Shown piece by piece: positions 7,793 through 44,189 of a DNA stretch of 64,000 bases; positions within the stretch are counted from its first letter, which is position 1; each line of letters opens with the position of its first letter. Location: positions 69,026-133,025 of the forward strand of contig JAWPOC010000016.1 in the NCBI GenBank assembly GCA_033345235.1, written 5' to 3'. The notes beneath the pieces are model-generated. The model saw only the letters and a program-made list of their open reading frames with translations, was not told the origin of the DNA and searched no databases. The translations under genes were made by a program, and so were the position numbers. The DNA comes from Alphaproteobacteria bacterium (lineage in GTDB: Bacteria; Pseudomonadota; Alphaproteobacteria; Rs-D84).

Positions 7793-8143
7793 ATGTATAA
7801 ACGAATTGATGTGTTGACAGAATATTTACAACTTAGTCAATACCAATCAAGTAAATTGAAAACAGACTATGATAAATACAATATATCACGACTGGAAAAA
7901 CGTGGCGGAGTTTTATATGCACCATATGTTATACATGGCTTTTGGAGTAAATTATTTAGCATCTTTTTGGGCAGAAGAGCCGATTTAATCGGGAAAACAA
8001 AAATTGTTTTACGGGCGCAACGTAATATAAAATTTTGCGCAAATGGTTACCACTGTGTCAGAATAGGGTTATATACTTATTATGCAGATGCAGATGGAAA
8101 TGCTGTGTCGCGAAACGAATTTATACGGAATACAAAACATTAA
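7793..8143 (+). CDS. hypothetical protein
   Basis: ORF only. No motif recognised. Confidence 0.3.
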   Translation: MYKRIDVLTEYLQLSQYQSSKLKTDYDKYNISRLEKRGGVLYAPYVIHGFWSKLFSIFLGRRADLIGKTKIVLRAQRNIKFCANGYHCVRIGLYTYYADADGNAVSRNEFIRNTKH

Positions 8144-10614
8144 AACTTGTCGTGTGTTTTAATGAATGCGCGCATATAGCCAATGTCCATATTTTGCATA
8201 ATGTCAGATAAAGAATAATTTCGAACGCCATTTGGCATAATGCTTAACGCGATTGTCACAGGTGTTGGCGCAGTTCCGCGCATGGTTAAGTCAAATTCAG
8301 CAGTCATTGTTCCGTCTGTCAGCGCCAAACCCCCAATCGCATCTGTGTGGCGCATTGATAAAGTTAAAGGTTTTGTTGTAATAAAATTGCCATTGGTATA
8401 TTCGCCAACAACGTGCATCTTTTTTATTTTTGTTTCGCCACCACCCAAAGTGCGCGCCAGTGCATATTCCGCAGTCAGTATAGATAAATCTTCGGCAGAT
8501 GCATAGAAATCATCAAATGACATACCAATCAGATAACCGCTGTTAAAGGTTATGTCTAAATCACCACTTAGGTTATAATATATATCATGGGCAATTTGGC
8601 CATGGGTGTGCAAGTGCGCTTCGGCTGTTATCATTGTATCGCGAATGTTTAAAGGCATATTTGACGATAATAATGTCCCGTTTATCAAGAACTTGTTTAA
8701 TTGTGCAAATATTTCATATGTGTTTTTATCTTTATCAATTGTTGCCAGTAAGTTACCGCGATAAGAATCTGTAATCGAAAATGTTTGTGAGTTTTCTTTT
8801 AATGAATATGTAAAGTTTTTATATTCATTGCCTTTGTATATCAATACATCAGAATACAAAGATATATTTATCGGCAGATTAAATAATGTCATTATTGGCG
8901 CGTTTTTCAAGAATTCCAGTTCAGAAAATCTGTTTACAAAATCTGGATTGATAAATTTATCCAGTGGTAATGTTTTTGTAAATAATGTTATGTTTTTTCC
9001 AGATGCAGAACCTGTAAATTCATGGTCTGATATTTTTATATTTAAATTTGATATTTTATCTTTGTTATAATGACCAGATATAACATATGGCGCATCATTT
9101 ACAAAATCAAGATCGATATTCGGTATCCATGTTTTAAAATTATCGCCAGAAATATAAAAATAATTATCAAGTGTTGCAAATGTCCATCTTTTGCTGTTCG
9201 GAACAAATGTTAACATATTGTCTTGCCATATAAAATTACCGGATTCAGATAACATATATTCAGGTAAAAATGGCAGTTTTATATTTAACCATTTCAAGGT
9301 TTTATTGTCTGCATAATCGTATGTCGGAATTATTTTGTTGCCGTTGATTTCCATTTTGCCACCGACGTTTGCGAACTTAAAGTGTATTGTTCCGTTGTCT
9401 CCAAACATAGATGTCAGTTTTAATATTTCTGAATCTGATAACATTTTTTTATTTGATTGAACGTATATACTAAAAGTTCTGTCGTTTACAGAAATTGTGC
9501 CGGTCATATCTGCGTATGTAAATTTACTGCATGTCCAATTGTCTGGTGTGCCAGAAAATAGGCATGTCGATTTATGTTTGTTAAAAGGCAATGTTAATAA
9601 CAAATTATTTGCGCCATCTTTTGTTATTGTGCCGCCTGTTATAGATATGTCATCCGCAATAACTTTGTTTATTTGAATCTGATTATTACTGCCAATGGCG
9701 TCAATTAATAAATGATGGAATTTATGATTTTGAAAACTGAGATTCCCATAAAAATCAATATTAATTTTTGTTCGATGTAATAAACTGGTTGGGTGTGCCA
9801 AGAATGAAAAATCAAATGTAATATCATCTGAAACTAATTGAATAATACGTTCTCCATTAGGTAACATTTCAATGTTGCCAGATATTGTATTTGTTTTCAA
9901 ATTTGTTATTTTATAACTGTCACCACCATCCCATTCGAAATCAGTCGTTAAATAAACAGTGTGGTCGATTTTTGGTTCTTTTATTCCCAGCCATTCATTG
10001 ATGTTTTTTGTTTTTACAGACATATTGCCGCGTATGCTGCCGTCTGTGTACATTTGACCTGTGATGTTCAAGTTGTTCGTTTTGTTTTTGATATTAAATG
10101 TGCTGCCTATGAACTCTACATCATATTTATGATTCTTGGTGCGAATGGTTCCATGAAATTGCCCGTTAGTAAAATCTGCGCGTACGATATAAAATTTACG
10201 CCCCATAAAATTAATCATACTGTTATATATTTCAATGTTGTGGTTGAACATTGCTGGTTCTAACTTGTTAATATTAATGTTCGCATCATATATAACCACA
10301 GCGTCATTTAATCGCGCGTTTTTTAAGTCAAAGAAATTATGAAATGGTATCGAAAACATAACAGAACCAATAGTGGCATTTGGTATATCAACATCGTGTG
10401 CAACAATTGTTGTGCCACCAATAAGACTGAAATGTATATCGCCTTGTAATTTTAATGGGACGCGTGTTTGCTCAAGTATAGACTGTTCAACAACGTTCTT
10501 GAAAGAATTTAATGTTATCATTGGTGGAATGATAATCACCGTCAGCACAATTGTGCAAATAATAGATACAATTGCCCAAAAAAATCTGCGTTTATACTTA
10601 GGTTTTAATGCCAT
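8140..10614 (-). CDS. AsmA-family outer membrane assembly protein
   Basis: N-terminal TM anchor (FFWAIVSIICTIVLTVIIIPP) followed by a long beta-rich periplasmic region, ~820 aa. Architecture is typical of AsmA/TamB-like proteins. Confidence 0.55.
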   Translation of the reverse strand: MALKPKYKRRFFWAIVSIICTIVLTVIIIPPMITLNSFKNVVEQSILEQTRVPLKLQGDIHFSLIGGTTIVAHDVDIPNATIGSVMFSIPFHNFFDLKNARLNDAVVIYDANININKLEPAMFNHNIEIYNSMINFMGRKFYIVRADFTNGQFHGTIRTKNHKYDVEFIGSTFNIKNKTNNLNITGQMYTDGSIRGNMSVKTKNINEWLGIKEPKIDHTVYLTTDFEWDGGDSYKITNLKTNTISGNIEMLPNGERIIQLVSDDITFDFSFLAHPTSLLHRTKINIDFYGNLSFQNHKFHHLLIDAIGSNNQIQINKVIADDISITGGTITKDGANNLLLTLPFNKHKSTCLFSGTPDNWTCSKFTYADMTGTISVNDRTFSIYVQSNKKMLSDSEILKLTSMFGDNGTIHFKFANVGGKMEINGNKIIPTYDYADNKTLKWLNIKLPFLPEYMLSESGNFIWQDNMLTFVPNSKRWTFATLDNYFYISGDNFKTWIPNIDLDFVNDAPYVISGHYNKDKISNLNIKISDHEFTGSASGKNITLFTKTLPLDKFINPDFVNRFSELEFLKNAPIMTLFNLPINISLYSDVLIYKGNEYKNFTYSLKENSQTFSITDSYRGNLLATIDKDKNTYEIFAQLNKFLINGTLLSSNMPLNIRDTMITAEAHLHTHGQIAHDIYYNLSGDLDITFNSGYLIGMSFDDFYASAEDLSILTAEYALARTLGGGETKIKKMHVVGEYTNGNFITTKPLTLSMRHTDAIGGLALTDGTMTAEFDLTMRGTAPTPVTIALSIMPNGVRNYSLSDIMQNMDIGYMRAFIKTHDKF

Positions 10615-10660
10615 TCTCTCTTTCCTTGTATTTTTATTATAATGGATTACAATCAAGGTT

Positions 10661-12664
10661 GTGAACAAAAAAATGAAACAGGCAGAATTTATTCTTGAAA
10701 GTAACTATGAACCAATGGGCGATCAACCGACCGCTATATCTGAATTGGTGTCAGGTTTAAAACAAGGACAGCAAAATCAAGTTTTGCTGGGGGTGACCGG
10801 TTCTGGAAAGACTTTTACAATGGCAAATGTCATAAAAGAAATGGGACGGCCTGCGCTGATTATGGCACCAAATAAAATATTGGCGGCTCAGTTATATACA
10901 GAAATGAAGTCTTTTTTTCCGCATAATCACGTTGAATATTTTGTTTCTTATTATGATTATTATCAGCCAGAGGCTTATCTGCCGACAACAGATACTTATA
11001 TCGATAAAGATGCGTCAATAAATGAACAGCTGGATCGTATGCGGCACAGTGCAACACGTGCAATGCTGGAAGAACGTGACGTTGTTGTTGTGTCCAGCGT
11101 GTCCGCAATTTATGGTATGGGGTCGCCAGAACAGTACGCAGGTATGCGACTGGTTTTAAATACAGGTAATAATATTTCTATGCGTGATGTAATTCGCGCT
11201 TTGGTTGATATTCAATATAAAAGAAATGATACTGCATTTGCACGTGGTGAATTTCGTGTGCGCGGTGATGTGTTGGATGTTTTTCCATCGCACGCAATGG
11301 ACAGAGCGTGGAAAATTTCTTTTTGGGGTGATGAAATCGAAGAAATTTGGGAATTTGATACTTTGACTGGTGCAAAACTTAAAAAAATAGACAGAATCGC
11401 AATATATCCAAATACTCATTATGCAACACCAATGCCCAGTGTTCTGCAGGCTATTACACAAATAAGACAAGATTTAACAGAAAGGTTGGATTTCTTTCAC
11501 CAAAATATGAAATATATCGAAGAACAGCGTTTGCGTGAAAGGGTGAACTTTGATATTGAAATGATGGAAAGTACAGGTACATGTCGTGGGGTCGAAAATT
11601 ATTCGCGATATTTATCTGGACGTGCACCAGGACAACCACCACCGACTTTGTTCGAATATTTACCAAAAGACGCAATTCTTTTTATTGATGAAAGTCATGT
11701 GACTGTGCCGCAAATCGGTGCTATGAGTCGCGGTGACAGGGCACGTAAAGAAACTTTGTCTCAGTATGGTTTTAGATTGCCCGCGTGTATTGATAACAGG
11801 CCTTTGACATTTGATGAATGGGATATGTTGCGACCCCAGACTATATTCGTATCCGCAACACCCGCAGAATGGGAATTAAACCAAGCAAACGGTATCGTAT
11901 CTGAACAAGTTATCAGACCAACAGGATTATTAGACCCTGTGTGTGAAGTCAGACCAACACAATACCAAGTCGATGATTTGTTGGAACAAGTTAAAAAGGT
12001 TAATGGACGGGTCTTGGTTACAACGCTTACTAAAAAAATGGCCGAACAATTAACAGATTATTTTGTGGAAAATGGTGTTCGTGCAAAATATCTACACAGT
12101 GATATTGAAACGCTGGAACGTATCGAATTGTTGCGTGATTTAAGATTGGGTAAGTTCGATGTATTGGTTGGGATAAATTTACTGCGTGAAGGACTGGATG
12201 TACCAGAATGCGAATTGGTCGCAATTATGGATGCAGATAAAGAAGGATTCTTGCGGTCGGCGCGGTCACTGATTCAAACAATTGGACGTGCCGCGCGTAA
12301 TGCCAATGGGCGTGTTATACTGTATGCAGATAAAGTCACAGATTCTATGCAACAGGCATTAACAGAAACCGCCAGACGACGCGATAAACAAATGAAATAT
12401 AATCAAACGCATAATATTATACCGAAAACTGTGACCAAGGCAATTTTTGCCGAAGTAGGTGATGCACAAGAAAAAACTGATGGCACACGACGCTTTATTT
12501 ATGATAAGTTGGGTGGTGTAATGGATGCAGAATCAATTCGAAAAGAAATTAAAAAACTAACCCAGAAAATGAAGAAGTATGCAGAAGATTTAGAATTTGA
12601 AGAAGCTGCGCGTCTGCGCGATGATATTCATAAACTGGAAGATGATTTGTTATTAGTGGAGTAG
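10661..12664 (+). CDS. uvrB: excinuclease ABC subunit B
   Basis: GDQPTAI, Walker A GVTGSGKT, helicase motifs, and a C-terminal UvrC-interaction coiled-coil. Confidence 0.95.
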
Positions 12665-12669
12665 GGCAA

Positions 12670-13080
12670 ATGCAAGAATTTATTTTAAATAATGTTGATG
12701 AAATGCGCGCTTGGGCGTCTGAATTCGCACGCAGTTTAGTCGCGCCAGCTGTTGTCGCATTACATGGTGATTTGGGAATGGGAAAGTCTGAAATCGCGCG
12801 GGCAATAATAAAGACTCTTCGTGGGGCGGATACTGTTGTCCCCAGCCCAACGTTTACAATTGTTCAATCGTATGACGGAATCTCTCATTTCGATTTGTAT
12901 CGTATAGAAGATGTCTCAGAACTGGCGGAAATTGGTTTGCAGCACGCAATTGATAACGATATAACATTAATTGAGTGGCCTGATATCGCGTCAAACGTTT
13001 TGCCAGAAAATACAATACATATAAGTATCGTTCAATATGGTAATGGACGTAAAATAACGCTGAACACAAAACAGGAATAA
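12670..13080 (+). CDS. tsaE: tRNA threonylcarbamoyladenosine biosynthesis protein TsaE
   Basis: P-loop LHGDLGMGKSEIARAI and the YjeE-family size. Confidence 0.8.
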   Translation: MQEFILNNVDEMRAWASEFARSLVAPAVVALHGDLGMGKSEIARAIIKTLRGADTVVPSPTFTIVQSYDGISHFDLYRIEDVSELAEIGLQHAIDNDITLIEWPDIASNVLPENTIHISIVQYGNGRKITLNTKQE

Positions 13081-13124: not shown

Positions 13125-13222
13125 CGACTTTGCATTGATAAGCGGACTTATACAAGACCCGAACCCACATCCCTAAGGTGCATAGTTTGCAAATTAAAAG
13201 ACGCCATTTTGGCGTTTTTTAA
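13125..13222 (+). ncRNA. candidate small RNA carrying a conserved 21-nt motif (CCCGAACCCACATCCCTAAGG)
   Basis: Possible TGnTATAAT-like promoter at 13106-13115. Hairpin terminator GACGCCATTTTGGCGTTTTTT at 13192-13222. The same 21-nt motif occurs at 4087-4108. Confidence 0.2.
13192..13222. terminator. bidirectional terminator between convergent tsaE and ftsA-rpe
   Basis: AAAAGACGCCATTTTGGCGTTTTTTAATTTT. Confidence 0.6.
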
Positions 13223-15003
13223 TTTTGTGTGTTTTGATGTGGTAACAGACTTTGAACAGCCAATGGAAAATCGTGCGCGCGTGCTAAATATGAACCGCAT
13301 ACCAACATATCTGCACCTGCATCCCAACAAAGCTGCGCAGTTTTATCGTTTATACCACCATCTACAGATATTGTATATTTTAAATTGTATTTTTTACGCG
13401 TGGCATTTAATACAGATATTTTATGCAATGCATCAGGATTAAACGCTTGGCCTGCTGCACCGGGGGTAACAGACATTACCATCACTTCATCAATTTCACG
13501 TAATATGCTTTTTAATATCGATATAGATGATTCTGGGTGCAAGGCAATTCCAACGCGCTTGCCAGATGAATGAACAGTGCGTATCGCAGCGCGCAGACCA
13601 GATGTGTTCGTTGATAAAATAACTGTGTCTGCACCTGAGTTAATCGCATCTTTGGCCCAAATGTTCGGGCTTTCTGTCATTAAATGTACGTGCAAGTGCG
13701 AATTTGTGTGTTGCCGTATAGTTCGTAATTCTTCGATGCTGCCAGATATTCTATCAACATAAAAGCCATCCATAATATCAACGTGTATCATTGATATGTC
13801 GCCAGACTTGAATAGCGTATATGTTTCTGGACGTAACATATTAAAGCATAATGTGCTGGGTAATATAGGTATGAATTTTTTACGGGCTTTCTTTTTTTTG
13901 CGACGGATTTTTGGAAATATATTTAAAAGCGACGCGATTTTCTTTTGTCTGGAAATAAAAGTTTGACGATGTGCCTGCTCATTCATCCAGATGTAATCAG
14001 ATAACGCACGTACAGTTGTGTCAATCGGCATAGTTTCTGTTGTAACAGCAAATGCATTTTCAATAAAGTCACGAACTCCCTCGATTTCTGCGCCACCGCC
14101 AGTCAGGATTATTTTTGTCGGTCTGTATTTTTTAAAGCTGGATTCACATTGGTCTTTGATTTGACTGATTATATCAACCATAATCGGGACAAGTGTTTCG
14201 TTTATATCAGAACGTGAAAAATCATATGCAGTGTCTGCAGGGGTAAATCTGTCCATTTCTTTTGGTATCAAAGATGAAACAGATTTTTTTATTCTTTCGG
14301 CATCTTCAAAACTTAAATCAAATTTTGTGCGGATTTCATTTGTTATATCTGTGCCGCCAGAATTTATTTTCGTGTGCATCACAGGACCACGATCTGTCCA
14401 TATCGATACAGATGTATAGCGTGCACCAAAGTCTATAAACATGGTCGTTTGTTTTTGATGTCTTAGTGATGCATTCAGTATAAAGTGCGGATCATAAAAG
14501 GCATCTGCTTGAATGTGTGCGCCGCGCAAATGTTCATGAATTTTATCCAGACCTGTACCAGAATAGCATATCGCACTGAATACAGATATTAACTGATGAT
14601 CAATAAGACCAGATGGATTTACAATATTGCGAGCATTCGGTGTGTCGTATCGCAGCGGTATTATATGCATCGGAAAATAATTTTCTGGAATATTAATACG
14701 AGATATCTGATTGCGTATGTCATTGGTCGTAATTTTATGTTCCCCAGACCAAACGGTATTCTTGGCGTTCATACTGAACTGAGATGGGCCAAAATCCCCA
14801 GTGATATATGCACTGTCAAAATGGGCGCCAATTTGTTGTTCCAGTTCATCGATAACTGTTTTTATCGCAAAAACCGTATCATAGCTGTCTGATGTAAAAT
14901 ATGCGGATTTTTCAATGTTTGCGTCTTTGATACGATGCGCAATACCGCGCACGCCACTGGTGCCAATATCCAGACATAAAAAAGATGAAACAAACAAGTT
15001 CAT
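13219..15003 (-). CDS. ftsA: FtsA fused in frame to ribulose-phosphate 3-epimerase (single 594-aa ORF)
   Basis: N-terminal actin-like FtsA (DIGTSGVRG, ...ILTGGGAEIEG, amphipathic KKIASLLNIFPKIRRKK). After the KKKKARKK linker comes full Rpe (FIPILPSTL…IHVDIMDGFYV…HLMTESP…VMSVTPGAAGQAF…ISVDGGIN). No stop codon or ATG separates them. An A8 run lies at 13891-13898. Confidence 0.7.
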   Translation of the reverse strand: MNLFVSSFLCLDIGTSGVRGIAHRIKDANIEKSAYFTSDSYDTVFAIKTVIDELEQQIGAHFDSAYITGDFGPSQFSMNAKNTVWSGEHKITTNDIRNQISRINIPENYFPMHIIPLRYDTPNARNIVNPSGLIDHQLISVFSAICYSGTGLDKIHEHLRGAHIQADAFYDPHFILNASLRHQKQTTMFIDFGARYTSVSIWTDRGPVMHTKINSGGTDITNEIRTKFDLSFEDAERIKKSVSSLIPKEMDRFTPADTAYDFSRSDINETLVPIMVDIISQIKDQCESSFKKYRPTKIILTGGGAEIEGVRDFIENAFAVTTETMPIDTTVRALSDYIWMNEQAHRQTFISRQKKIASLLNIFPKIRRKKKKARKKFIPILPSTLCFNMLRPETYTLFKSGDISMIHVDIMDGFYVDRISGSIEELRTIRQHTNSHLHVHLMTESPNIWAKDAINSGADTVILSTNTSGLRAAIRTVHSSGKRVGIALHPESSISILKSILREIDEVMVMSVTPGAAGQAFNPDALHKISVLNATRKKYNLKYTISVDGGINDKTAQLCWDAGADMLVCGSYLARAHDFPLAVQSLLPHQNTQN

Positions 15004-15012
15004 ATTCTGTAT

Positions 15013-15693
15013 TTATTCGATTAATATACGCGCACTGTCACGCATATCAATTGTCTTTATATCTTTGTTTAAAAGATTGTGTTTGTTATTTAAATCAACC
15101 AATGTGTTTACAGCCACAGATGGATTTTGTTCCGGTAACATAATTCTTATTCCGTTGTTCGTATACATATCCCAACGACGGTTTTCAATCCATTCCAAAT
15201 GATTTAAGTGACCAACTAAATTATGTGCTATTTTAGTTATTTCAGAAATATCAGATGGTAATTTCCCGCTGAATACAACGTTGCCAATGTTACGTGTTTC
15301 GGTCGGCTTGTTAACAATCGTGCCATCTGCAGATAATGGATAATAATTTTCCCCATCTGTCCATAATGCCACCGCTTGATATAAAGATACTGTTACAGAA
15401 ATATTCCCATTTGGCATTCTGCGTACAGCGGATTTCTTTATCCCAGGGACATTACTAATACGGGTGTTTATTTCTTCTAAATCAACCAGATATGAATTTG
15501 TGCCAGATGTAATGTTTATCGCAGAAACTAGTCCTGATAAATCTTTGTTTTCTTGGTCGGCCGATATAGATATATTACGAACAAGGGATGATGGTGAATG
15601 GCCAAAGCCTGTTGTTATTATGCGCACAGAAAAATAAATCGCCAGGCACATAGCGATAATAAAACTTAGCCAAAACCATATAGAACGTCTCAT
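15013..15693 (-). CDS. ftsQ: cell division protein FtsQ
   Basis: N-terminal TM plus POTRA-like domain. It sits immediately upstream of ftsA as in dcw clusters. Confidence 0.65.
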   Translation of the reverse strand: MRRSIWFWLSFIIAMCLAIYFSVRIITTGFGHSPSSLVRNISISADQENKDLSGLVSAINITSGTNSYLVDLEEINTRISNVPGIKKSAVRRMPNGNISVTVSLYQAVALWTDGENYYPLSADGTIVNKPTETRNIGNVVFSGKLPSDISEITKIAHNLVGHLNHLEWIENRRWDMYTNNGIRIMLPEQNPSVAVNTLVDLNNKHNLLNKDIKTIDMRDSARILIE

Positions 15694-16545: not shown

Positions 16546-17877
16546 ATGAATTTGTTGAAAAAAAGTCTTTTTACCCTGATGGGTGGAATAATAATGTTGG
16601 GGTGTGCACAACAACAAAATCAACAAAATATGCCTTTGTATGATACTGTTACAGTTGTTGATCAATTGGTAATTGATGATAATTCTGTGCCTATCTTTCC
16701 GAAAAAAGCGGCACTGACAACTGATACTGCCAGACGTTTTTCAATCGAATTGCCAAAACGATGTGAAGTAAATTGGGATAATCAAACAGTTGTGTCTGTA
16801 GTGCCCGAAGAAACTATTGAAATTGTCAGATTGAACAAAGGGGATGCGTTGCCGGAATTGCAAGTCGCTGATTATGATTTTACAGAACTGACTGTTAAAC
16901 AGGCGTTGGATAAATTGTTAATCGGAACAGATATCGCGGTAATCGAAGATGAACCTGTTTATGAAAAAATCTCTGGAACAATATCTGCAGGTAAATTGTC
17001 TGATGCAGTGGATTTAATGACAAAAATGGGGCGTGCATATTATCACTATGATGCGGAAAATGGTGAGTTAAGATTGGCACATTATGGAAAATGGTTGATA
17101 AAAATGCCATATAACCAGACTATTATTATGGCGTTATTAGATGCAATGCATGGTGCAGATGTTCGTAACTTGTTGGTAAATTGGCAAGATAAAACAATCG
17201 TGTTCGAAGGTAATTATCAAACAGAACGAGAAGTAGCAAAAATTATCGCAGATGTATCTGATAAGAAATATATGCTGGCCTGGGATATAGATGTTTATCG
17301 TGTGTATCCACGTACAGATAATCCAATCGTATGGATGAATTTGTTACCCGCGTTCGGAGATAGAAATATAAAAATGTCAATACCTGGGGTTGTTGGACGT
17401 GCGCTGGTTGTGGGACCAGAAATAAACACCAAGACATTGCAAGAATTTTTGGCTCAACAAGCAAATGTTGTTCTGATATCCCAAGGAACTTTTGCGATAC
17501 CAAATGGTTGGCAATCCAGATTTGATATCGGACAATGCAGTAAGGAAGAAAGGTTGGAAACAGATTTAATTATTGGTGCAACTGGTACATATGGGGATTT
17601 CGGTGGTATGGATAAAATAGATGCCAAAATAGTCTTGAGAACAAGCAATGGCGAACTGTCTTCGTTTAATATACCAACCAGCATAGGTGATAACTATGTT
17701 ATTGTCGGTATCCCAACGCATTCATTTGTTACAACGCCTGAAACATTAGTGTCACCATTTGCAGAATTGGTTGTGTTTATGTCGCCTCGTGTGATTTCAA
17801 TTGTTAAACCAGATGCAGATAATGCAGATGATGATTTGTTAATCGGGGATGCGTTGCGTGATTTCTTGAATGAATAA
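16546..17877 (+). CDS. hypothetical lipoprotein (443 aa), co-oriented with and overlapping lolC/E
   Basis: Lipobox IMLGCAQ. The C-terminus …LVVFMSPRVISI is weakly secretin-like. Confidence 0.45.
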   Translation: MNLLKKSLFTLMGGIIMLGCAQQQNQQNMPLYDTVTVVDQLVIDDNSVPIFPKKAALTTDTARRFSIELPKRCEVNWDNQTVVSVVPEETIEIVRLNKGDALPELQVADYDFTELTVKQALDKLLIGTDIAVIEDEPVYEKISGTISAGKLSDAVDLMTKMGRAYYHYDAENGELRLAHYGKWLIKMPYNQTIIMALLDAMHGADVRNLLVNWQDKTIVFEGNYQTEREVAKIIADVSDKKYMLAWDIDVYRVYPRTDNPIVWMNLLPAFGDRNIKMSIPGVVGRALVVGPEINTKTLQEFLAQQANVVLISQGTFAIPNGWQSRFDIGQCSKEERLETDLIIGATGTYGDFGGMDKIDAKIVLRTSNGELSSFNIPTSIGDNYVIVGIPTHSFVTTPETLVSPFAELVVFMSPRVISIVKPDADNADDDLLIGDALRDFLNE

Positions 17878-17893
17878 ACAAGGTAAAATAATA

Positions 17894-19147
17894 ATGTTTT
17901 CTAAACTGGAAAGAAAAATTGCTTTTAGATATATGGGTGCCAAAAAACGTGGCTTTGGTTCTGTTATATCGTGGGTGTCGCTGATTGGTATTATGCTGGG
18001 GGTGGCGACATTAATTGTTGTTATGTCTGTTATGGGCGGTTTTCATGATACTTTGTTGGGGCGTATCGTCGGAATGAACGGACATGTGGTGGTTTATCAT
18101 CAAGATGGTGCAATTGCTGATTTTGATTTCTTAATCGATAAAATGCGCCAAAATAAAGTGGTCGAAGAATATGCTACTGCGATTGTGCCAATTGCCGAAG
18201 GGCAAGTTATGGCAACTGCAAATGGAAATAATACGGGCGCAATGGTACGTGGTATTCGTATGACTGACTTGGTCGAGAAAACAAAAACAGGTACACGTAT
18301 TTACGGGAAAAGTTTATCGGAAATTACAGATGGTGAATTGGTCGCAGGCGCATCTTTGACGCGGGCGTTGCGTGTGACAATGGGTGATAATATTTCGCTG
18401 GTGTCGGCAAATGCTGCAACATCAACGCCATTCGGTTCAATGCCACGAATTATGGCGTATCCAGTGAAAAGTTCGTTCTTTATGGGAATGCATGAATATG
18501 ATTCTGGATATATTTTTATGCCACTGCAGACGGCACAGAAATATTTAAATATTCCAAATTCTGTTACGCATATTGATTTGTTCTTGAAAAATCCCGAAGA
18601 TACAGATGCTGTTGTAAAGGCCTTGGTTAATTTGTTGCCTGATGGATTTGTTGTACGTGATTGGCGTGAATTAAATCGCGGTTTTGTTGGGGCGTTACAG
18701 GTCGAATCAAATGTTATGTTTTTGATTTTATTACTGATAGTCATTGTTGCTGCGTTTAATATAATTTCCAGTTTGGTTATGTTGGTGAAAGATAAAAATA
18801 AAGATATCGCAATTCTGCGGACGTTTGGCGTGTCTCGTAAATCTATGATGAAAATATTTATACTGTCTGGAACCAGTATTGGTGTTATTGGGGCCGCGTT
18901 TGGTACATTCTTTGGTGTGCTGGTTGCGATTTATATTGAACCAATCAGACAATTTTTCCAATGGCTGACAGGACGCGATTTATTCCCATCTGAATTATAT
19001 TATTTGTCTGAATTACCATCAAAGTTGGTAATCAGTGATGTTGCAGGTATTGCTTTGATTGCGATATTGTTGGCATTCTTGGCGACATTGTATCCTGCAT
19101 GGAAGGCGGCAAATACTGATCCGGTCGAAGTGTTGCGAAATGAATAA
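17894..19147 (+). CDS. lolC: lipoprotein-releasing system permease LolC/LolE
   Basis: FtsX-like permease with N-terminal RKIAFRYMGAKKRGFGSVISWVSLIGIMLGVATLIVVMSVMGGF and C-terminal PVEVLRNE, aligning with E. coli LolC/LolE. Confidence 0.8.
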   Translation: MFSKLERKIAFRYMGAKKRGFGSVISWVSLIGIMLGVATLIVVMSVMGGFHDTLLGRIVGMNGHVVVYHQDGAIADFDFLIDKMRQNKVVEEYATAIVPIAEGQVMATANGNNTGAMVRGIRMTDLVEKTKTGTRIYGKSLSEITDGELVAGASLTRALRVTMGDNISLVSANAATSTPFGSMPRIMAYPVKSSFFMGMHEYDSGYIFMPLQTAQKYLNIPNSVTHIDLFLKNPEDTDAVVKALVNLLPDGFVVRDWRELNRGFVGALQVESNVMFLILLLIVIVAAFNIISSLVMLVKDKNKDIAILRTFGVSRKSMMKIFILSGTSIGVIGAAFGTFFGVLVAIYIEPIRQFFQWLTGRDLFPSELYYLSELPSKLVISDVAGIALIAILLAFLATLYPAWKAANTDPVEVLRNE

Positions 19148-19164
19148 TAAAAGGTTGTTGTAAA

Positions 19165-19875
19165 ATGGCGAATATTTTAAGTTCTTTGTCAAAGATAAAA
19201 AAGTCAGATGTTGTGCTGTCTGTGCGCGATATTAAAAAGACTTTTATCGAAGGTGGACAACCGTTACATATTCTGCGCGGCGGCGGATTTGATTTGCATC
19301 GTGGGGAAATAATCGCGATGGTTGGACAATCTGGATCAGGTAAGTCGACATTGTTGCAATGCGTGGGACTGTTGGATAAACCAAGTGGCGGCAGTATTAT
19401 TATTGATGGTCGTCCTGTGCAAAGAATGGATGAAGATACGCGTACTAAAATTAGACGTAAAAAAATTGGATTCGTGTATCAAAAACATAATCTGTTGTCT
19501 GATTTTTCTGCGTTGGAAAATGTTATGCTGCCAATGATGGCAGATGGTGTTGCCGAAGATACTGCGCAAGCGCGCGCAATAAAATTACTAAAAGCTGCAA
19601 ATGTTGTACATCGCGCATCGCATATGCCTGGGGAAATGTCCGGCGGTGAACAGCAAAGAACTGCGGTTGCGCGCGCGTTGGCAAATAATCCTGATATATT
19701 GTTGGCAGATGAACCAACCGGCAGCTTGGATCCACAACATGCAGGGGCGGTCTTTGATTTGTTGTTAAAACTGGTGCGTAATAATAAAATGTCTATGTTG
19801 TTTGTTACGCATGATATGGGATTGGCTGAAAAAGCAGATAGAATTATAACCATTAAAAATGGTATAGTTGAATAA
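19165..19875 (+). CDS. lolD: lipoprotein-releasing system ATP-binding protein LolD
   Basis: ABC ATPase with Walker A GQSGSGKST, signature LSGGEQQR and Walker B ILLADEPTG. Confidence 0.85.
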   Translation: MANILSSLSKIKKSDVVLSVRDIKKTFIEGGQPLHILRGGGFDLHRGEIIAMVGQSGSGKSTLLQCVGLLDKPSGGSIIIDGRPVQRMDEDTRTKIRRKKIGFVYQKHNLLSDFSALENVMLPMMADGVAEDTAQARAIKLLKAANVVHRASHMPGEMSGGEQQRTAVARALANNPDILLADEPTGSLDPQHAGAVFDLLLKLVRNNKMSMLFVTHDMGLAEKADRIITIKNGIVE

Positions 19876-22737: not shown

Positions 22738-24345
22738 TTATTCCAGAATTTCGTATTCGTCGATATAAGTGCGACTGACTGTATCAATTGTAACAGGTTT
22801 CCAATCTTTGGATTTTATCGGGGTTGTATCAACGGCCGGTGGAACAGATATCACAGGTATCGTTGCAACAGGAGCAGAATCAAAGTTTTCATCCGCAGCA
22901 ATTGCATCACTGGTATATTTGCCAATAAAGCGTTCCGGTATGTCGATATAGTCATTAGGATTGACTTCTTCGGTTGACATCGGCATCGCAGACGCAGGTT
23001 TTATGTGACGCTGCTCAATATGATATAATGGTGTTTTAAAGTCTTTTGCAGCTGACTTAACTTCGTTTGGAATGCCTGTACCATTTAACTGCATTATGCG
23101 CAGGCCGCGTTCATTATCGCCACTGGGTTTCAAGCGAATAAGACCATCAACACCGATATAACCACTGGGGTCCAGTAAGTATGCAGCATTCGTTTTGTCA
23201 GAATACATCATGCCAATCGCAAGGTTCGCGGCGTCATAACCAAATGTCGCAAATCTGTTTGGTGCGCGACCTGTGATTTGTGAATATGTATTTGCAAATT
23301 CAGAATTCGTAGATGGCAGACCAACAAATTTAGAACCAGACATAGTAAAGTCAGATGTAATATCAGGTGATTCCCACATCGATGTGCCATAAAAACGTGC
23401 ATCACGTGCGCCAACGTTATAATAGCGCAAGAAAGATGCCAATGCCTTGGAATCGTTGCCATTGCCCAAGAATAATATCGCGTCATATGGAACAGTACCA
23501 ACAGTGTCCGTCTTTGATAACTTTTCTAGTTGCGCGTTAAGATTTGATTCTTCGATTGGTGTTAACATCTCATTTGTTAATATGTCAGACAAGATTTTGC
23601 GCGCTTCGGTATGGGCGGCACTGCGTGCAGAATGCATTGCGGCATCTTTGGCGATATTCTTTATTGAATCCGTATCTTGTTCATCGTAATAGAATATGCC
23701 AATCAGTGGTATGTCGTATATAGATGCAGCATTTTTTGCAGTCCCAGCCAACAGACGACCAGATGACGTATCAGGCGCCATAATAATAAAGTTCTTGTTA
23801 TTATCTATCTTCATTTCTTTGACAATTTCTTCGACGCCATTTGTTGGTACCAAGCCAACTGTCATAACACCATTACCAATCGCAGTTACATCAGATGTAA
23901 ATGACAATACAGGCAAATCAGATGGTTTATTCTTGCGCACGATTTTGGTGTCTTCGGCAAACACTGGCCCAATAATAATGTCTGGATTTGTAGACAGTAC
24001 GGTTTTCATTGTTTCTTTTAAATCGCCACTGTTTGAATCATAAAAAGATACAGATAAATTCTGGGGCGCATTTTTTAATACAGCTGTTTCAACAGATGTT
24101 CTGATGGCGTCACCAACAGATTCTGCCTGACCAGATAATGGTACCAATACAGCCATAGAATAAGATGTTTCCGCAATGTTGCCATAGCCATCAGATAAAT
24201 ATCCGTATTTTAACTTTGACGGAGTGCCCACAGCATAAGTGTTATACCCATCCAACCAATCCGCGTCAGATTCAAAAGTTTGAGAGCCACAGCCAGATAA
24301 AATAATCAGGCTAAATAAATAATAGAAAAATTTGTTTATATACAT
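22738..24345 (-). CDS. LpoA-like lipoprotein with a periplasmic-binding-protein type I fold
   Basis: Lipobox LIILSGCGS. PBP type I-like central and C-terminal region. The ORF may start at 24399. Low certainty. Confidence 0.4.
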   Translation of the reverse strand: MYINKFFYYLFSLIILSGCGSQTFESDADWLDGYNTYAVGTPSKLKYGYLSDGYGNIAETSYSMAVLVPLSGQAESVGDAIRTSVETAVLKNAPQNLSVSFYDSNSGDLKETMKTVLSTNPDIIIGPVFAEDTKIVRKNKPSDLPVLSFTSDVTAIGNGVMTVGLVPTNGVEEIVKEMKIDNNKNFIIMAPDTSSGRLLAGTAKNAASIYDIPLIGIFYYDEQDTDSIKNIAKDAAMHSARSAAHTEARKILSDILTNEMLTPIEESNLNAQLEKLSKTDTVGTVPYDAILFLGNGNDSKALASFLRYYNVGARDARFYGTSMWESPDITSDFTMSGSKFVGLPSTNSEFANTYSQITGRAPNRFATFGYDAANLAIGMMYSDKTNAAYLLDPSGYIGVDGLIRLKPSGDNERGLRIMQLNGTGIPNEVKSAAKDFKTPLYHIEQRHIKPASAMPMSTEEVNPNDYIDIPERFIGKYTSDAIAADENFDSAPVATIPVISVPPAVDTTPIKSKDWKPVTIDTVSRTYIDEYEILE

Positions 24346-24393
24346 TGAAAAATCCATTTTATTCTGTATCATTTTACTATAAAAGGAAACAAA

Positions 24394-25194
24394 ATGCAAA
24401 CAGGGCTTTATATAGTTGGAACACCAATTGGAAATTTATCAGATATGTCGCCACGCGCAATCGATGTTTTGAAAAATGTCGATTTGGTCGCAACCGAAGA
24501 TACACGCGTCTTTGGCAAGTTGGCCGCGCACTTTGATATAAAAACAAAACGTGTTTCGTGTCATGAACATAATGAGCGGGATGTTATCCCAGATATTATT
24601 GAAAAGATAAAGTCTGGATTGGCTGTGGCGGTGGTGTCAGACGCAGGTATGCCCGCAATATCAGATCCTGGATTCAGATTAGTGCGCGCAGCAAGAACAG
24701 AAAATCTGCCGGTGTTTGTTGTCCCAGGACCTGTGGCGGCGATTTCCGCGTTGGTTTTGTCCGGATTCCCAACAGATAGATTTACTTTCTGTGGATTTTT
24801 CGATGAAAAAAAACTGCGTGACGATAATAAAATAAGACATACAATTATTTATTATGAAAGCCCAAATAGAATTATGAATACTATTGCCGCTTTGGCGCGG
24901 GTTATGCCAGAACGTCAAATCGCAATTGTGCGTGAAATTACTAAAATTCACGAAGAAACAATTATCGGATATCCGGCTGAATTGATGAATATTGTGCCAC
25001 CACGTGGCGAAATTGTTATCGTTGTCGCACCTGCGCCAGAACATAAAATGTCAGATGCAGAAATTTCAAATATCGTAAATGATATCGCAATGACTTCTAT
25101 GAAATCTGCAGCTGCAGATTTAGCCGCCAGAACAGGTATTTCTAAGAAAGAAGCGTATAAACGTTTGTTGGAAAAAGAGGGTACAGATGATTAA
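24394..25194 (+). CDS. rsmI: 16S rRNA (cytidine1402-2'-O)-methyltransferase
   Basis: Tetrapyrrole-methylase fold. N-terminus LYIVGTPIGNLSDMSPRAIDVLKNVDLVATEDTRV. Confidence 0.85.
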   Translation: MQTGLYIVGTPIGNLSDMSPRAIDVLKNVDLVATEDTRVFGKLAAHFDIKTKRVSCHEHNERDVIPDIIEKIKSGLAVAVVSDAGMPAISDPGFRLVRAARTENLPVFVVPGPVAAISALVLSGFPTDRFTFCGFFDEKKLRDDNKIRHTIIYYESPNRIMNTIAALARVMPERQIAIVREITKIHEETIIGYPAELMNIVPPRGEIVIVVAPAPEHKMSDAEISNIVNDIAMTSMKSAAADLAARTGISKKEAYKRLLEKEGTDD

Positions 25195-34905: not shown

Positions 34906-36006
34906 ATGTATTTTTTTGAAAAGTGCAGATTTGGACAGGTTGTTTTGGCGGTTTTTAGCGCCTTTTTGTTGGCGTCTTGTGATTTGTCGACGCCAACTGT
35001 CAGCGGCGATAATTCTGTGATTCCATCTAATTTCAAGCGGGTGTCTTATAATGATTTGCCAGGTTGGCGCGATGATGACGTCAGATATGCGTTGCAGGCC
35101 TTTCGTAATTCATGCAAGGCGAAAATTCAATACACTGGGCGTGTAATCCCAGACAAGCAACTGTTTAATGAAAAATGCCGTACTTTGCCATCCGCATCCG
35201 CAGATGTGGCAACTGTTCGCGCTTGGTTTGAATCTAATTTCCAGCCGTACAAGATTTATAATGATAACGGAACAGACAAAGGAACATATACAGGGTATTA
35301 TTCCCCGATTATACCTGCGTGCCGTACCAAGACTGCACAATGTAACGAACCTTTGCTGGGCTTGCCAAAAGATGGTCGCGCATACAAAGGTGTCGCAAAA
35401 AAAGATATTGTCGAACAGCAAATAGGTCAGGTCTTGTATTGGGCAAATATTGTTGATGTGCAAAACCTGCAAATTCAAGGCAGTGGTAACCTGAGACTGG
35501 AAGACGGTACAGATGTAAAATTGAACTATGCGGGTGTAAATGATATGCCTTTTAAATCAATTGGGGAAGAATTGCGCAATCGTGGTATCAGACCGGCCGG
35601 TGGTTATTCGTCAGAGGCTGTGTGGCAGCACTTGAAAGCAAATCCGGCATTGGCCAAGGATGTGATTTATAAAAATCCACGATATGTTTATTTCTATGAA
35701 TCAACACCACCAGATGTTATTGGCAAGTTGGGTACGCCTTTGTCAAAAATACGCAGTGTCGCAATGGATGATAAATTGTATACATTGGGATTGCCGGTGT
35801 ATGTAAATACGAATTTATCAGATGGTCGCCCGTTCCGCCGATTGATGATTGCCCAAGATACAGGCAGTGCAATTCGTGGTTGGATTCGTGCAGATATCTT
35901 TTTCGGCAAGGGTGATGAAGCATATAAATTTGCCCAAGGACAACATTCCCAAGGTCAAATGTTTATCTTGATGCCAAAAGAATATACTTATGTCAAACCA
36001 CAGTAA
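34906..36006 (+). CDS. mltA: membrane-bound lytic murein transglycosylase A
   Basis: Lipoprotein signal (LLASCD), MltA domain and 3D domain (…AQDTGSAIRG…). Confidence 0.8.
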   Translation: MYFFEKCRFGQVVLAVFSAFLLASCDLSTPTVSGDNSVIPSNFKRVSYNDLPGWRDDDVRYALQAFRNSCKAKIQYTGRVIPDKQLFNEKCRTLPSASADVATVRAWFESNFQPYKIYNDNGTDKGTYTGYYSPIIPACRTKTAQCNEPLLGLPKDGRAYKGVAKKDIVEQQIGQVLYWANIVDVQNLQIQGSGNLRLEDGTDVKLNYAGVNDMPFKSIGEELRNRGIRPAGGYSSEAVWQHLKANPALAKDVIYKNPRYVYFYESTPPDVIGKLGTPLSKIRSVAMDDKLYTLGLPVYVNTNLSDGRPFRRLMIAQDTGSAIRGWIRADIFFGKGDEAYKFAQGQHSQGQMFILMPKEYTYVKPQ

Positions 36007-39444: not shown

Positions 39445-40347
39445 ATGAGTTTTTCTAGATTTATTGCAACAGTGAAAATTGTATTCTTGGGGCATATTTT
39501 AAACTGGCCTTGGCGGTCGCGCATTAAACGACGCAAAGTGCGCAGTGATGTTATTTCAAAAATAATACCAAAATATTTTAAAAGATATTTGCCAGCAGCC
39601 GCGGCGGTTGTTGAAAGAAAAGTCGAAAACAATGATAAAAACGACAAAATTTTTACACTGTGGTTACAGGGTGAAGATAAAGCGCCTCCTTTGGTTCAGG
39701 CGTGTTTTCGCAGTGTGCGTAAAAACTGTAAACAAGAATTGGTTGTGTTGGATGAAAAGACGGTCTTTGATTACATTACTTTGCCAGATGTTATTATGGA
39801 AAAGCGTAAGGCTGGTAAAATCGCGCATGCTCATTTCGCAGATATTTGTCGCGTAGAGTTGTTATATAATCATGGCGGATATTGGCTGGATTCAACAGGA
39901 TTGGCAACCAGTGCAATTCCAGACTGGATTGAAAATGAAGATTTCTTTGTGTATTTGGCCGGACAAAATGTCGGCAGCCCTTATTCTTTTATGCAAAACT
40001 GTTTCATTCGTGCGCGTAAAGGGGCGTATTTGTTAGATGCGTGGCGCGCGATGATTTTAGATTATTGGATGCATGAAAATTCTAACTTTGATTATTTTAT
40101 GCACCAATTACTGTTCAAAGCGTTGGTTACATATGACCCTCGTGCAAAAAAGTACTTTGAAAAAATGCCACACGTTGATCAAGATCCAACGCATATGTTG
40201 TGGTGGGATTATCATAATAAACCTTTTGATAAAAAACAATTTGAACAAGTTACCAGTGGCGCTTTCTTTCAAAAACTGACTTACCGCGGTTCGGAAAAGC
40301 CAGTGCCTGGGACGTATGCAGATGAAATTATCAAAATGTATAAATAA
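39445..40347 (+). CDS. GT32-like (DXD, capsular-polysaccharide-synthesis type) glycosyltransferase
   Basis: Motif FADICRVELLYNHGGYWLDSTG resembles the GT32 sugar-binding region. Confidence 0.5.
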   Translation: MSFSRFIATVKIVFLGHILNWPWRSRIKRRKVRSDVISKIIPKYFKRYLPAAAAVVERKVENNDKNDKIFTLWLQGEDKAPPLVQACFRSVRKNCKQELVVLDEKTVFDYITLPDVIMEKRKAGKIAHAHFADICRVELLYNHGGYWLDSTGLATSAIPDWIENEDFFVYLAGQNVGSPYSFMQNCFIRARKGAYLLDAWRAMILDYWMHENSNFDYFMHQLLFKALVTYDPRAKKYFEKMPHVDQDPTHMLWWDYHNKPFDKKQFEQVTSGAFFQKLTYRGSEKPVPGTYADEIIKMYK

Positions 40348-40361
40348 CAAAAGGATTACAG

Positions 40362-41381
40362 ATGCCCGCAATTTCAATTATTATTCCAATGTATGGTGTT
40401 GAAAAATATTTGCGCAGATGTTTGGATAGTGTACAAAATCAGACTTTTAAAGATTGGCAGGCAATTTGTGTGAATGACGGCAGTCCTGATAAATCTGGCG
40501 AAATCGCACGCGAATACGCTGCACGTGACAAGCGGTTTGTTGTGGTCGATAAAGAAAACGGTGGTTTATCTGATGCGCGTAATGCCGCAATGCCATATGT
40601 CACAGGTGATTATATTTTATATCTGGATAGTGATGATTTTATTCATCCACAAACAATGGAAATTGCGTATTCTTTGGCTTTGCGTGATGGGTCAGATATT
40701 GTGTCTTTTACATACGACAGAATTTATCGCCCCCAATTGATGGTGCGTCATAAATTAGGTTTGGATACAGATAATGTTGTGCCAAGGCGTATGCATAAAA
40801 AATATGACCTTGCAAAAATTAAAACACGTGTCACAGATGATGTATACGAATATGCAACAGAACGCACACATAATAAATTTAATCCAAAACGCAAGTGGCT
40901 AATTAAACACTGTCAGGTTTGGAAAAATTTATATAAACGTGAATTAATCGAAGATATTCCTTTTATCAAGGGAATATTATTCGAAGACTTCCCTTGGTGG
41001 AGTCGCGTTATGTTGCGTAATCCACGTGTTACAATCGCGCCACTGCCGCTGTATTTCTATATTCCAAATTTTGGTGGAATAGTGTTGGGGGCAAAGCAAC
41101 TGCGTATTATGAAAAGTTTGTGCACTGGTATCGAAAGTGCGTATGACGCGTATAAAGAATCTGCAACTGAATATCAGATGAAACGATGGAATGCTGAATT
41201 CAAGTGGTACTTTATCAAATGGGCGTTTAGAAAGATAAAATATTTGGATAATGATGCAGATGTTGCAGATGCTCGCGAATGCTTTAGACATTTAAATGAA
41301 ATAGGCGCGTTGTCTAATCCGCCATATGCGTGGGCAGAAAAAATTCGTGAAAGTATCTTGGATTTTATCAAAGGAAAATAA
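40362..41381 (+). CDS. family 2 glycosyltransferase
   Basis: ISIIIPMYGVEKYLRRCLDSVQNQTFKDWQAICVNDGSPD…LYLDSDD (GT-A fold, DxD). Confidence 0.8.
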   Translation: MPAISIIIPMYGVEKYLRRCLDSVQNQTFKDWQAICVNDGSPDKSGEIAREYAARDKRFVVVDKENGGLSDARNAAMPYVTGDYILYLDSDDFIHPQTMEIAYSLALRDGSDIVSFTYDRIYRPQLMVRHKLGLDTDNVVPRRMHKKYDLAKIKTRVTDDVYEYATERTHNKFNPKRKWLIKHCQVWKNLYKRELIEDIPFIKGILFEDFPWWSRVMLRNPRVTIAPLPLYFYIPNFGGIVLGAKQLRIMKSLCTGIESAYDAYKESATEYQMKRWNAEFKWYFIKWAFRKIKYLDNDADVADARECFRHLNEIGALSNPPYAWAEKIRESILDFIKGK

Positions 41382-41384
41382 CCG

Positions 41385-42401
41385 ATGACTGAAAAAACTA
41401 TTATATCAATAATTATCCCTGTGTATAACGTTGAACGGTTTTTACGCAGATGCTTAGATAGTGTGTTGCGTCAGACTTTTCAATACTGGCAGGCAATATG
41501 TGTTAATGATGGCAGCACAGACGGCAGTCTTGAAATATTACAAGAATACGCTGCAAAAGATTCTAGATTCAAAGTGATAAATAAAAAAAACGGTGGATTG
41601 TCTGATGCGCGTAATACCGGTATGAAATATGCCAAAGGCGAATATGTTTTATTCTTAGACAGTGATGATTTTATTCATGACCAAACGCTGGAATTGATGT
41701 TCGGAACGATAAAACAAAAACGTGCAGATATGGCGTTGTTTGACTTTGATTTGCCTTTTTACAAAGCGTTGCGTGCAAAGTTAGATAAACACAAAGATAT
41801 ATATGATTTAGTTCCAACCAGCAGAAGAAGGGTTTATAAATTTAGCAGATTTTGTAAGTATGTAACGAAAAATATTTTGATGCATTGTACCGAACGTAAT
41901 CGTACTTTGTTTATACGACGCCCTGTACGCAGACATTGTTATCCTGTGTTGGCGTTGTATAGCAAAAATTTAATCCAAGATATTCATTTTATCAAAGGAA
42001 TTATTATCGAAGATTTTCCATGGTGGGTTGCAGTATTGCACAAAAAACCAAAGACTGTTATGACTAAATTGCCACTGTATTTTTATATTCCAAATGCGAC
42101 TTCGATATTAAACAGTTCTAAATCTTTGTTTATGGCAAAGTCAATCGCAACAGGCTTAAAGGCATCGTTTGATTTGTATTCAACTGGTGTAAGTAAGTCA
42201 GAATATAAACATTTTAACTATCATTTCTTGTGGCCTTTTACAATTACAATGATGCGAAAAATTCGGGACTTGGATAATGATGCAGATATTGCAGTCGCAA
42301 AAGAATTTGTTTCCGATTTATATAATCATGGTGTTTTTGATATGCCATGTGGCGCGCGTGCCAGAAAATATAAACGCAAAATTTTAAAATTTATAAGTTA
42401 A
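41385..42401 (+). CDS. family 2 glycosyltransferase (tandem paralog of the preceding gene)
   Basis: ISIIIPVYNVERFLRRCLDSVLRQTFQYWQAICVNDGSTD…LFLDSDD. About 45% identity to the upstream gene over the N-terminal domain. Confidence 0.8.
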   Translation: MTEKTIISIIIPVYNVERFLRRCLDSVLRQTFQYWQAICVNDGSTDGSLEILQEYAAKDSRFKVINKKNGGLSDARNTGMKYAKGEYVLFLDSDDFIHDQTLELMFGTIKQKRADMALFDFDLPFYKALRAKLDKHKDIYDLVPTSRRRVYKFSRFCKYVTKNILMHCTERNRTLFIRRPVRRHCYPVLALYSKNLIQDIHFIKGIIIEDFPWWVAVLHKKPKTVMTKLPLYFYIPNATSILNSSKSLFMAKSIATGLKASFDLYSTGVSKSEYKHFNYHFLWPFTITMMRKIRDLDNDADIAVAKEFVSDLYNHGVFDMPCGARARKYKRKILKFIS

Positions 42402-42428
42402 GAAAAAAAAGACGCAATTGCGTCTTTT

Positions 42429-44134: not shown

Positions 44135-44189
44135 ATTATATAATTTACATGTTTTATAATCATTTTGCAAGAATCTTGAGGTTGGTAAT

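Follow-up and report, generated by a model that had tools for sequence, protein, structure and literature searches.

Several metabolic enzymes moonlight as regulators of bacterial cell division, among them UgtP, GdhZ and KidO. Further cases are OpgH in E. coli (PMC3723540) and QueE (PMC11142719), and pyruvate and glycolysis have been linked to division in B. subtilis (PMC4030479). Here, we analysed a 64-kb stretch of contig JAWPOC010000016.1 (hereafter, the window) from the lineage Candidatus Enterousia / GTDB order Rs-D84, which comprises reduced-genome gut Alphaproteobacteria. One minus-strand open reading frame (ORF) of the window, ftsA::rpe, joins an FtsA-like division protein to a complete ribulose-phosphate 3-epimerase (Rpe). 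We conclude with high confidence, judging from its sequence and that of its relatives, that this is a genuine, vertically inherited and ancient in-frame gene fusion encoding a single chain, produced neither by an error nor by slippage.

Enterousia genomes are smaller than 1 Mb, tightly packed and geared to fermentative metabolism, and they are reported to encode the non-oxidative pentose-phosphate steps except transaldolase (PMC12306168). The GC content of the window is 36-43%, and that of the genome is given as 38%. Full-text searches of PMC and bioRxiv for an FtsA-Rpe fusion, for natural FtsA fusions or for Rpe in division returned nothing relevant.

Domain architecture of ftsA::rpe

Translation from the ftsA start codon would yield one polypeptide of approximately 66 kDa with four predicted modules (Table 1): an FtsA ATPase core, an internalised amphipathic helix, a polybasic linker of fixed length and a complete Rpe barrel whose active site is intact. 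A sequence-only reading of the same DNA had already recognised that the ORF joins FtsA and Rpe, that the FtsA part is complete including its amphipathic helix, and that Rpe is full length and starts at strand beta1 without a Met. All three claims held up: the 594-residue ORF has profile matches to both halves, the AlphaFold2 (AF2) model contains a helix at residues 343-366 with a hydrophobic moment of approximately 0.6, and Rpe chains in the PDB align from their residues 4-7. The junction reads ...IFPKIRRKKKKARKK, directly followed by FIPILPSTLCF; in another extract, the same point reads ...NIFPKIRRKKKKARKK, again followed by FIPILPSTLCF.

Pfam and NCBIfam matches place the epimerase region at approximately residues 380-590. 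PF00834 (Ribul_P_3_epim) scores 146 bits over residues 390-573 (cut-off 21.1), and NF004076 scores 174.4 bits, above its cut-off of 165; TIGR01163, at 148.7 bits, stays below its trusted cut-off of 212.6. The S. pyogenes enzyme 2fli is matched both by sequence (E 2.5e-35) and in Foldseek (template modelling score TMt 0.88, root-mean-square deviation 2.3). Because residues 4-7 of the PDB chains align onto residues 374-377 of the query, the barrel is complete apart from its initiator Met. Residues H407, D409, H440 and D548 line up with the corresponding motifs of 2FLI, 1RPX and 3CT7, and they are invariant in all of the 81 Enterousia-type genes in which we counted motifs, linkers and A runs. Two motifs that are otherwise conserved in solved Rpe and AlsE structures are replaced throughout the clade, FVPN by YVDR (in the region of residues 414-418) and H-x-E on beta4 by S-T-N (464-466), and the substrate pocket or specificity of the Rpe half may not match that of an ordinary Rpe.

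An internal start for Rpe was considered and rejected. The only in-frame ATG, GTG or TTG codons between residues 330 and 400 are those of M340, which is not conserved, and M389, which lies inside the beta1/loop region of the barrel; no Shine-Dalgarno-like sequence was found upstream of either. A terminator scan gave no site close to the junction of FtsA and Rpe; on the minus strand, the nearest one (14239-14227) lies inside the FtsA part. The nearest stand-alone Rpe representatives are 34-39% identical and mostly unnamed, with one from Aerococcus, and the best PDB match is to the S. pyogenes enzyme. We do not claim that the Rpe moiety was acquired from Firmicutes, since an identity of 34-39% is too weak for this.

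The N-terminal half matches the FtsA/PilM/MreB actin-fold families over approximately residues 40-340 (Pfam, NCBIfam). PF14450 scores above its cut-off (39.5 versus 31.8 bits) and NF007009 below (28.9 versus 409). The best PDB sequence match is FtsA 7q6f (E 5e-11), and the top 14 Foldseek matches in the PDB are all FtsA, including 3wt0, 7q6f and 1e4g (TMt 0.64-0.69 over 354-388 columns), with PilM behind. Together, the AF2 model and Foldseek indicate the FtsA domain arrangement 1A, 1C, 2A and 2B within an actin-like fold. D12, G14, D191, G193, G302 and G303 are invariant in 81/81 genes; the window protein has both T15 and G304, and T15 does not vary in a 23-sequence alignment.

In the AF2 model of the fusion (mean predicted local distance difference test, pLDDT, 79), the actin fold is followed by helices at residues 343-360 and 362-366, a disordered stretch at 367-374 (pLDDT <50) and the TIM barrel, which begins with a strand at 380-383. 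The clade consensus of the helix region, RW..R.NW.GKIF.RK, is similar to the membrane-targeting sequence of E. coli FtsA, GSWIKRLNSWLRKEF. The hydrophobic moment of the best 14-mer averages 0.63 in the helix, compared to 0.57 for the E. coli membrane-targeting sequence and 0.53 for the 95th percentile of all 14-mers in these proteins. The membrane helix of FtsA thus appears, in the model, to have been retained but to be internal, followed by 10 basic residues and then the Rpe barrel.

The ratio of non-synonymous to synonymous substitution (omega), taken as the median over 30 pairs of Enterousia-type genes with unsaturated synonymous divergence (dS), is approximately 0.05 for the FtsA part, 0.10 for the tail and approximately 0.04 for the Rpe part. 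These values indicate that both halves are translated in this frame and are under strong purifying selection.

Conservation of the fusion

A search of 5.8 billion protein clusters (clustered at 90% identity) retrieved more than 120 clusters of 584-596 residues that are 68-99% identical to the fusion at 98-100% coverage. All of them have the FtsA-type and Rpe Pfam domains, and the contigs and sources behind them are many and independent. Relatives were matched in 258 GTDB species genomes, and in each of the 80 that we inspected in detail, the gene is a single stop-to-stop ORF of 589-607 residues. The related loci belong to metagenome-assembled genomes (MAGs) from ruminant, chicken, horse and human gut, labelled Candidatus Enterousia, "Alphaproteobacteria bacterium" or "uncultured Rickettsiales bacterium". 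When 1.84 billion representatives were scanned exhaustively with HMMER, the family extended to approximately 20 full-length fused clusters with identities down to 28-31%, some of them from "Rickettsiales bacterium" MAGs; beyond these, the matches are ordinary stand-alone Rpe proteins of approximately 210-230 residues (31-41% identity). Among the options that the sequence-only reading had left side by side, a true fusion protein is therefore strongly supported, by the more than 120 clusters and the 80/80 species genomes, with or without an A run at the junction.

Among the records with a source name, those of NCBI and JGI mostly list the fusion as "ribulose-phosphate 3-epimerase", and two NCBI MAG records call it "hypothetical protein". 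FtsA is hidden by this annotation in hundreds of Enterousia/Rs-D84 genomes, and surveys based on annotation could wrongly score it as missing.

The A8 run at the junction

The linker codons AAA AAA AAG AAA (Lys) contain a run of eight A at nucleotides 1105-1112 of the ORF, corresponding to 13892-13899 of the plus strand. The run had been noted at the junction before, one base off at 13891-13898. The predicted consequences of a length change were confirmed: one additional A gives ...KIRRKKKESP with a stop at codon 375, and removal of one A gives a stop 37 codons later.

These consequences raise the possibility that the true run is A9, that ftsA ends in ...KKKESP and that rpe is a separate or broken gene. 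A9 would indeed yield a plausible FtsA C-terminus, and homopolymers are error-prone on some sequencing platforms. However, A8 is also read in each of three assemblies of this species that were obtained independently from other samples and have 5-8 nucleotide differences in the gene. This agreement rules out an error of assembly or homopolymer length, and relatives in the same frame whose longest A runs are 2-5 bases here refute it as well: the frame is kept in 80/80 other species, most of which have no long A run. In addition, under this explanation Rpe would be left without a start codon at any frame-compatible position, and the omega of 0.04 on the Rpe part is that of a sequence translated in this frame. 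We regard the probability of such an error as negligible.

AT-rich endosymbionts and E. coli are known to show slippage on long A or T runs, and eight A residues are at or under the lengths where it becomes efficient. Programmed transcriptional or translational slippage on the A8 could in principle have been selected as a source of two products, the fusion and, from A9 transcripts, FtsA on its own, and the position of the run exactly at the domain boundary, with a stop four codons on after +1 A, would fit such a design. The run is not conserved, however. The longest stretch of A within the tail and linker varies from 2 to 8 bases among the 81 genes; A8 occurs in 5 genes, 43 have runs of at most 5, and A9 or longer was found in none (0/81). 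There are 14 A8 or T8 runs in the window, which makes the A8 ordinary for this genome. Of the linker, only the length and the positive charge are kept: K, R, Q, P and H replace one another freely in it, but 44 residues separate S335 from P379 in 74/81 genes, and every one of the 81 has a net charge between +4 and +10. The junction is free of indels in the 23-sequence alignment. Since the run varies from 2 to 8 and the genomic frame is already intact, slippage is neither conserved nor needed. As a designed feature it is unsupported, and we consider it very improbable. The poly-A slippage of Buchnera and Blochmannia resembles the present case in that an A run lies in a coding region of a reduced AT-rich genome; here, by contrast, the genomic frame is intact and the run is short (8) and unconserved among relatives.

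Gene neighbourhood

The adjacency of ftsQ and ftsA, which the sequence-only reading had pointed out, holds in the window and, upon comparison of gene order in relatives, in 80/80 loci, where ftsQ is directly upstream of the fusion with a gap of 5-96 nucleotides; other flanks are rearranged in many loci. The ORF with a lipobox upstream of ftsQ has no Pfam match, yet occupies the same position in approximately 48/80 loci and is 74-92% identical there, FtsQ being less conserved (51-72%). It is preceded by a promoter-like site at 16149->16121 that matches 11 of 12 positions, and it may encode an unrecognised envelope or division lipoprotein that is co-transcribed with ftsQ-ftsA::rpe.

Table 1. Coordinates of the fusion gene, its parts and other features of the window.
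Feature	Coordinates	Strand	Remarks
ftsA::rpe, single ORF	13219..15003	-	594 codons plus stop codon (13219-13221)
FtsA-like actin-fold core, residues 1-341	13981..15003	-	motifs D12-x-G14-T15, D191-x-G193, G302-G303-G304
Amphipathic helix region, residues 343-366	13906..13977	-	likely FtsA membrane-targeting sequence, internal instead of C-terminal
Polybasic linker, residues 367-376	13876..13905	-	RRKKKKARKK; contains the A8 run
Ribulose-phosphate 3-epimerase TIM barrel, residues 377-594	13222..13875	-	H407, D409, H440, D548 intact; own start codon absent
ftsQ	15013..15693	-	9-nt gap upstream of the fusion; PF03799 E 1.4e-11; probably co-transcribed
Lipobox ORF, 126 aa	15733..16113	-	upstream of ftsQ; MRIRILPLFLLLSAC... 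signal; possible first gene of the operon
tsaE	12670..13080	+	convergent downstream neighbour of the fusion
Bidirectional terminator-like hairpin	13191..13225	.	between the fusion gene and tsaE
AsmA-like gene	8140..10668	-	
uvrB	10661..12664	+	
Lipoprotein-like ORF (443 aa), permease and ABC ATPase trio	16546..19875	+	443-aa ORF without Pfam match
MacB/FtsX-type permease	17870..19147	+	start overlapped by the 443-aa ORF
ABC ATPase	19165..19875	+	
LppC/LpoA-like lipoprotein	22738..24399	-	
MltA	34906..36006	+	
Glycosyltransferase/capsule-synthesis-type genes	39445..45386		six genes: Caps_synth, GT2 twice, GT2_4, RgpF, GT61
XerC/D-type recombinase	52057..52920	-	
FtsK	61588..63861	+	

No ftsZ had been seen downstream of ftsA, and a tblastn search with E. 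coli FtsZ bore this out, with no match in the 64-kb window or in 87 loci (approximately 1.5 Mb in total; ±10 kb around all related loci). A second ftsA-like or rpe copy was likewise absent from the window and these 87 loci, and the fused Rpe may be the only Rpe of the cell. According to Pfam, the rest of the window consists of housekeeping genes, with no pentose-phosphate genes and with ftsK and xerC/D as the only division genes. The genes for XerC/D, FtsK, MltA and an LppC/LpoA-like lipoprotein mean that the window, although it has no ftsZ, does encode late-division and peptidoglycan functions. The trio of lipoprotein-like ORF, permease and ABC ATPase is kept beside the division genes in most related loci. 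The listed starts of the AsmA-like gene and uvrB overlap by 8 nucleotides on opposite strands (10661-10668); either the packing is extreme here, or the mechanically listed starts (TTG and GTG) are mis-assigned. Six glycosyltransferase/capsule-synthesis-type genes also stand in this otherwise minimal genome.

The neighbourhood bears on the identity of the N-terminal half, which could alternatively be another actin-fold protein, PilM-like or a new paralogue, with a spurious link to division. PilM_2 scores slightly above the FtsA Pfam model (42.6 versus 39.5 bits), the FtsA model TIGR01174 stays under its cut-off and ftsZ is not nearby, all of which would fit such a protein. Against this, the best PDB matches by sequence and structure are FtsA (TMt 0.64-0.69 versus 0.50-0.63 for PilM), the gene lies directly downstream of ftsQ in 80/80 genomes, the helix after the core resembles the membrane-targeting sequence of E. 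coli FtsA, and pilN/O/P/Q-like genes were not found adjacent to it. We therefore consider a protein other than FtsA unlikely.

Possible function of the fused protein

We propose that the FtsA half takes part in division together with FtsQ at the membrane and that the Rpe half, which is most likely active as an epimerase given its intact motifs, still interconverts ribulose-5-phosphate and xylulose-5-phosphate. Because the amphipathic helix and the polybasic stretch directly precede the barrel, FtsA would hold Rpe at the membrane, against its inner face and beside FtsA itself. Functional coupling of the two halves is much less certain than the fusion itself, a serious possibility that falls just short of probable. 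More speculatively, the Rpe barrel may also have a structural role, for example in oligomerising or spacing FtsA at the membrane; a linker of constant length, the antiquity of the fusion and its survival in a lineage whose two active sites have eroded all speak for such a role. It might also tie division to pentose-phosphate status, the nearest analogues being moonlighting enzymes such as OpgH, QueE and the pyruvate link.

Such erosion is seen in a sister lineage with very AT-rich genomes. The fused proteins P0133 and P0286 are encoded in genomes of 25.5% GC (L081 10001-11770 and L083 5001-6773), with the gene order lipoprotein, ftsQ, fusion, tsaE, uvrB and asmA as in the window. Their Rpe half has lost the phosphate-binding GQ and carries H407 to Y, D409 to T and D548 to C replacements, and their FtsA half has lost the DxGT, DxG and GGG motifs. 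The ORF is nevertheless intact at 589-590 residues, with an omega of 0.37 in its FtsA portion and 0.20 in its Rpe portion (dS approximately 0.4-0.5). This hints that the fused protein keeps a role beyond both catalytic activities. In a motif alignment of deep lineages (A2; 18 sequences, i.e., the window protein and 17 representatives), the Rpe tetrad is kept in 16/18 sequences, and the FtsA ATP motifs are eroded in other deep lineages as well. The deep fused homologues P0141, P0147, P0148, P0126 and P0131 combine changes such as D12Y, D191N/H and G14N with an intact Rpe tetrad; judged by these motifs, the enzyme half is the better-preserved part in these lineages.

A bolder reading is that the Rpe barrel is an integral, selected divisome module in Rs-D84, held at the membrane by the internalised helix of FtsA, oligomerising or spacing FtsA and possibly sensing pentose phosphates, so that division would be coupled to pentose-phosphate status, and that it has become a pseudo-enzyme scaffold in very AT-rich sublineages. 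We put this forward tentatively and regard it as rather unlikely in this full form. If true, it would be the first covalent, lineage-wide link between an enzyme of central metabolism and a core division protein.

The chief competing explanation is a real fusion without functional coupling, in which a stop codon and a spacer were lost as a neutral by-product of genome shrinkage and the two halves go on with their separate, usual jobs. This is quite possible, if somewhat less than probable. Such an origin would suit genomes that are smaller than 1 Mb and tightly packed (PMC12306168), and in Enterousia each half keeps its own active-site motifs while the linker sequence is poorly conserved. It is less easily reconciled with the persistence of the fusion down to approximately 28% identity, with the near-invariant linker length, with a ftsQ-fusion unit that stays intact while its flanks rearrange, or with a lineage that lacks the catalytic residues of both halves and retains the full-length ORF under purifying selection. 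Moreover, tethering Rpe beside a membrane helix alters the place of the enzyme, whatever the origin of the fusion.

Several points weigh against our interpretation of ftsA::rpe as a fused, membrane-held division protein and enzyme. The FtsA half is divergent, scoring 79.4 bits with TIGR01174 (cut-off 175.85), and its SHS2/1C Pfam match is weak (E 0.0085). The canonical partner of FtsA, FtsZ, has no gene in the window or in the sequence of the loci. The orientation of the two domains is not confident in the AF2 model (predicted template modelling score, pTM, 0.55). We infer translation as one chain, and the activity of each half, from sequence. The pseudo-enzyme argument comes from one sequence pair with an omega of 0.2-0.4, far more relaxed than in Enterousia, and in shrinking genomes, fusions can be fixed neutrally.

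Read as a Rosetta stone, the fusion hints that an enzyme of the pentose-phosphate pathway can operate next to the division machinery at the membrane. It also suggests that the FtsA membrane helix can function, or at least persist, internally before a large domain, which bears on the orientation of FtsA at the membrane. For the question of what stays essential after the loss of both catalytic sites, the degenerate sister lineage is a natural experiment. Interest in the system would rise considerably if complete genomes prove to be without ftsZ, or if the barrel modulates FtsA.

Comparison with known systems

With canonical FtsA (E. coli, T. maritima, S. aureus and V. maritimus; 7q6d, 1e4g, 3wqt and 7q6f), the fused protein has in common the actin fold with the FtsA-type domain arrangement, the conserved phosphate-1, phosphate-2 and adenosine motifs, a basic amphipathic helix that follows the core, and the location of its gene right after ftsQ. 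It differs in its shorter core (approximately 341 residues), which is 14-19% identical to solved FtsA structures, in the internal position of the membrane helix, which is followed by an enzyme domain of 218 residues, and in the lack of ftsZ after the gene. With canonical Rpe (S. pyogenes 2FLI, potato 1RPX and human 3OVP), it shares a complete (beta/alpha)8 barrel (TMt 0.88), the metal-binding and catalytic His, Asp, His and Asp residues, the Met cushion and the phosphate-binding Gly motifs. Unlike these enzymes, the fused Rpe has no start codon of its own, is joined to FtsA, carries the YVDR and S-T-N replacements and scores below the cut-off of TIGR01163.

With the fusion, the known cases of moonlighting that connect metabolism to division gain a covalent example. 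Like OpgH, QueE, the pyruvate link, UgtP, GdhZ and KidO, it would physically associate a metabolic enzyme with the division machinery. However, those enzymes are separate proteins that bind FtsZ conditionally, whereas in Enterousia the enzyme, as known from its sequence, would be covalently and permanently joined to FtsA.

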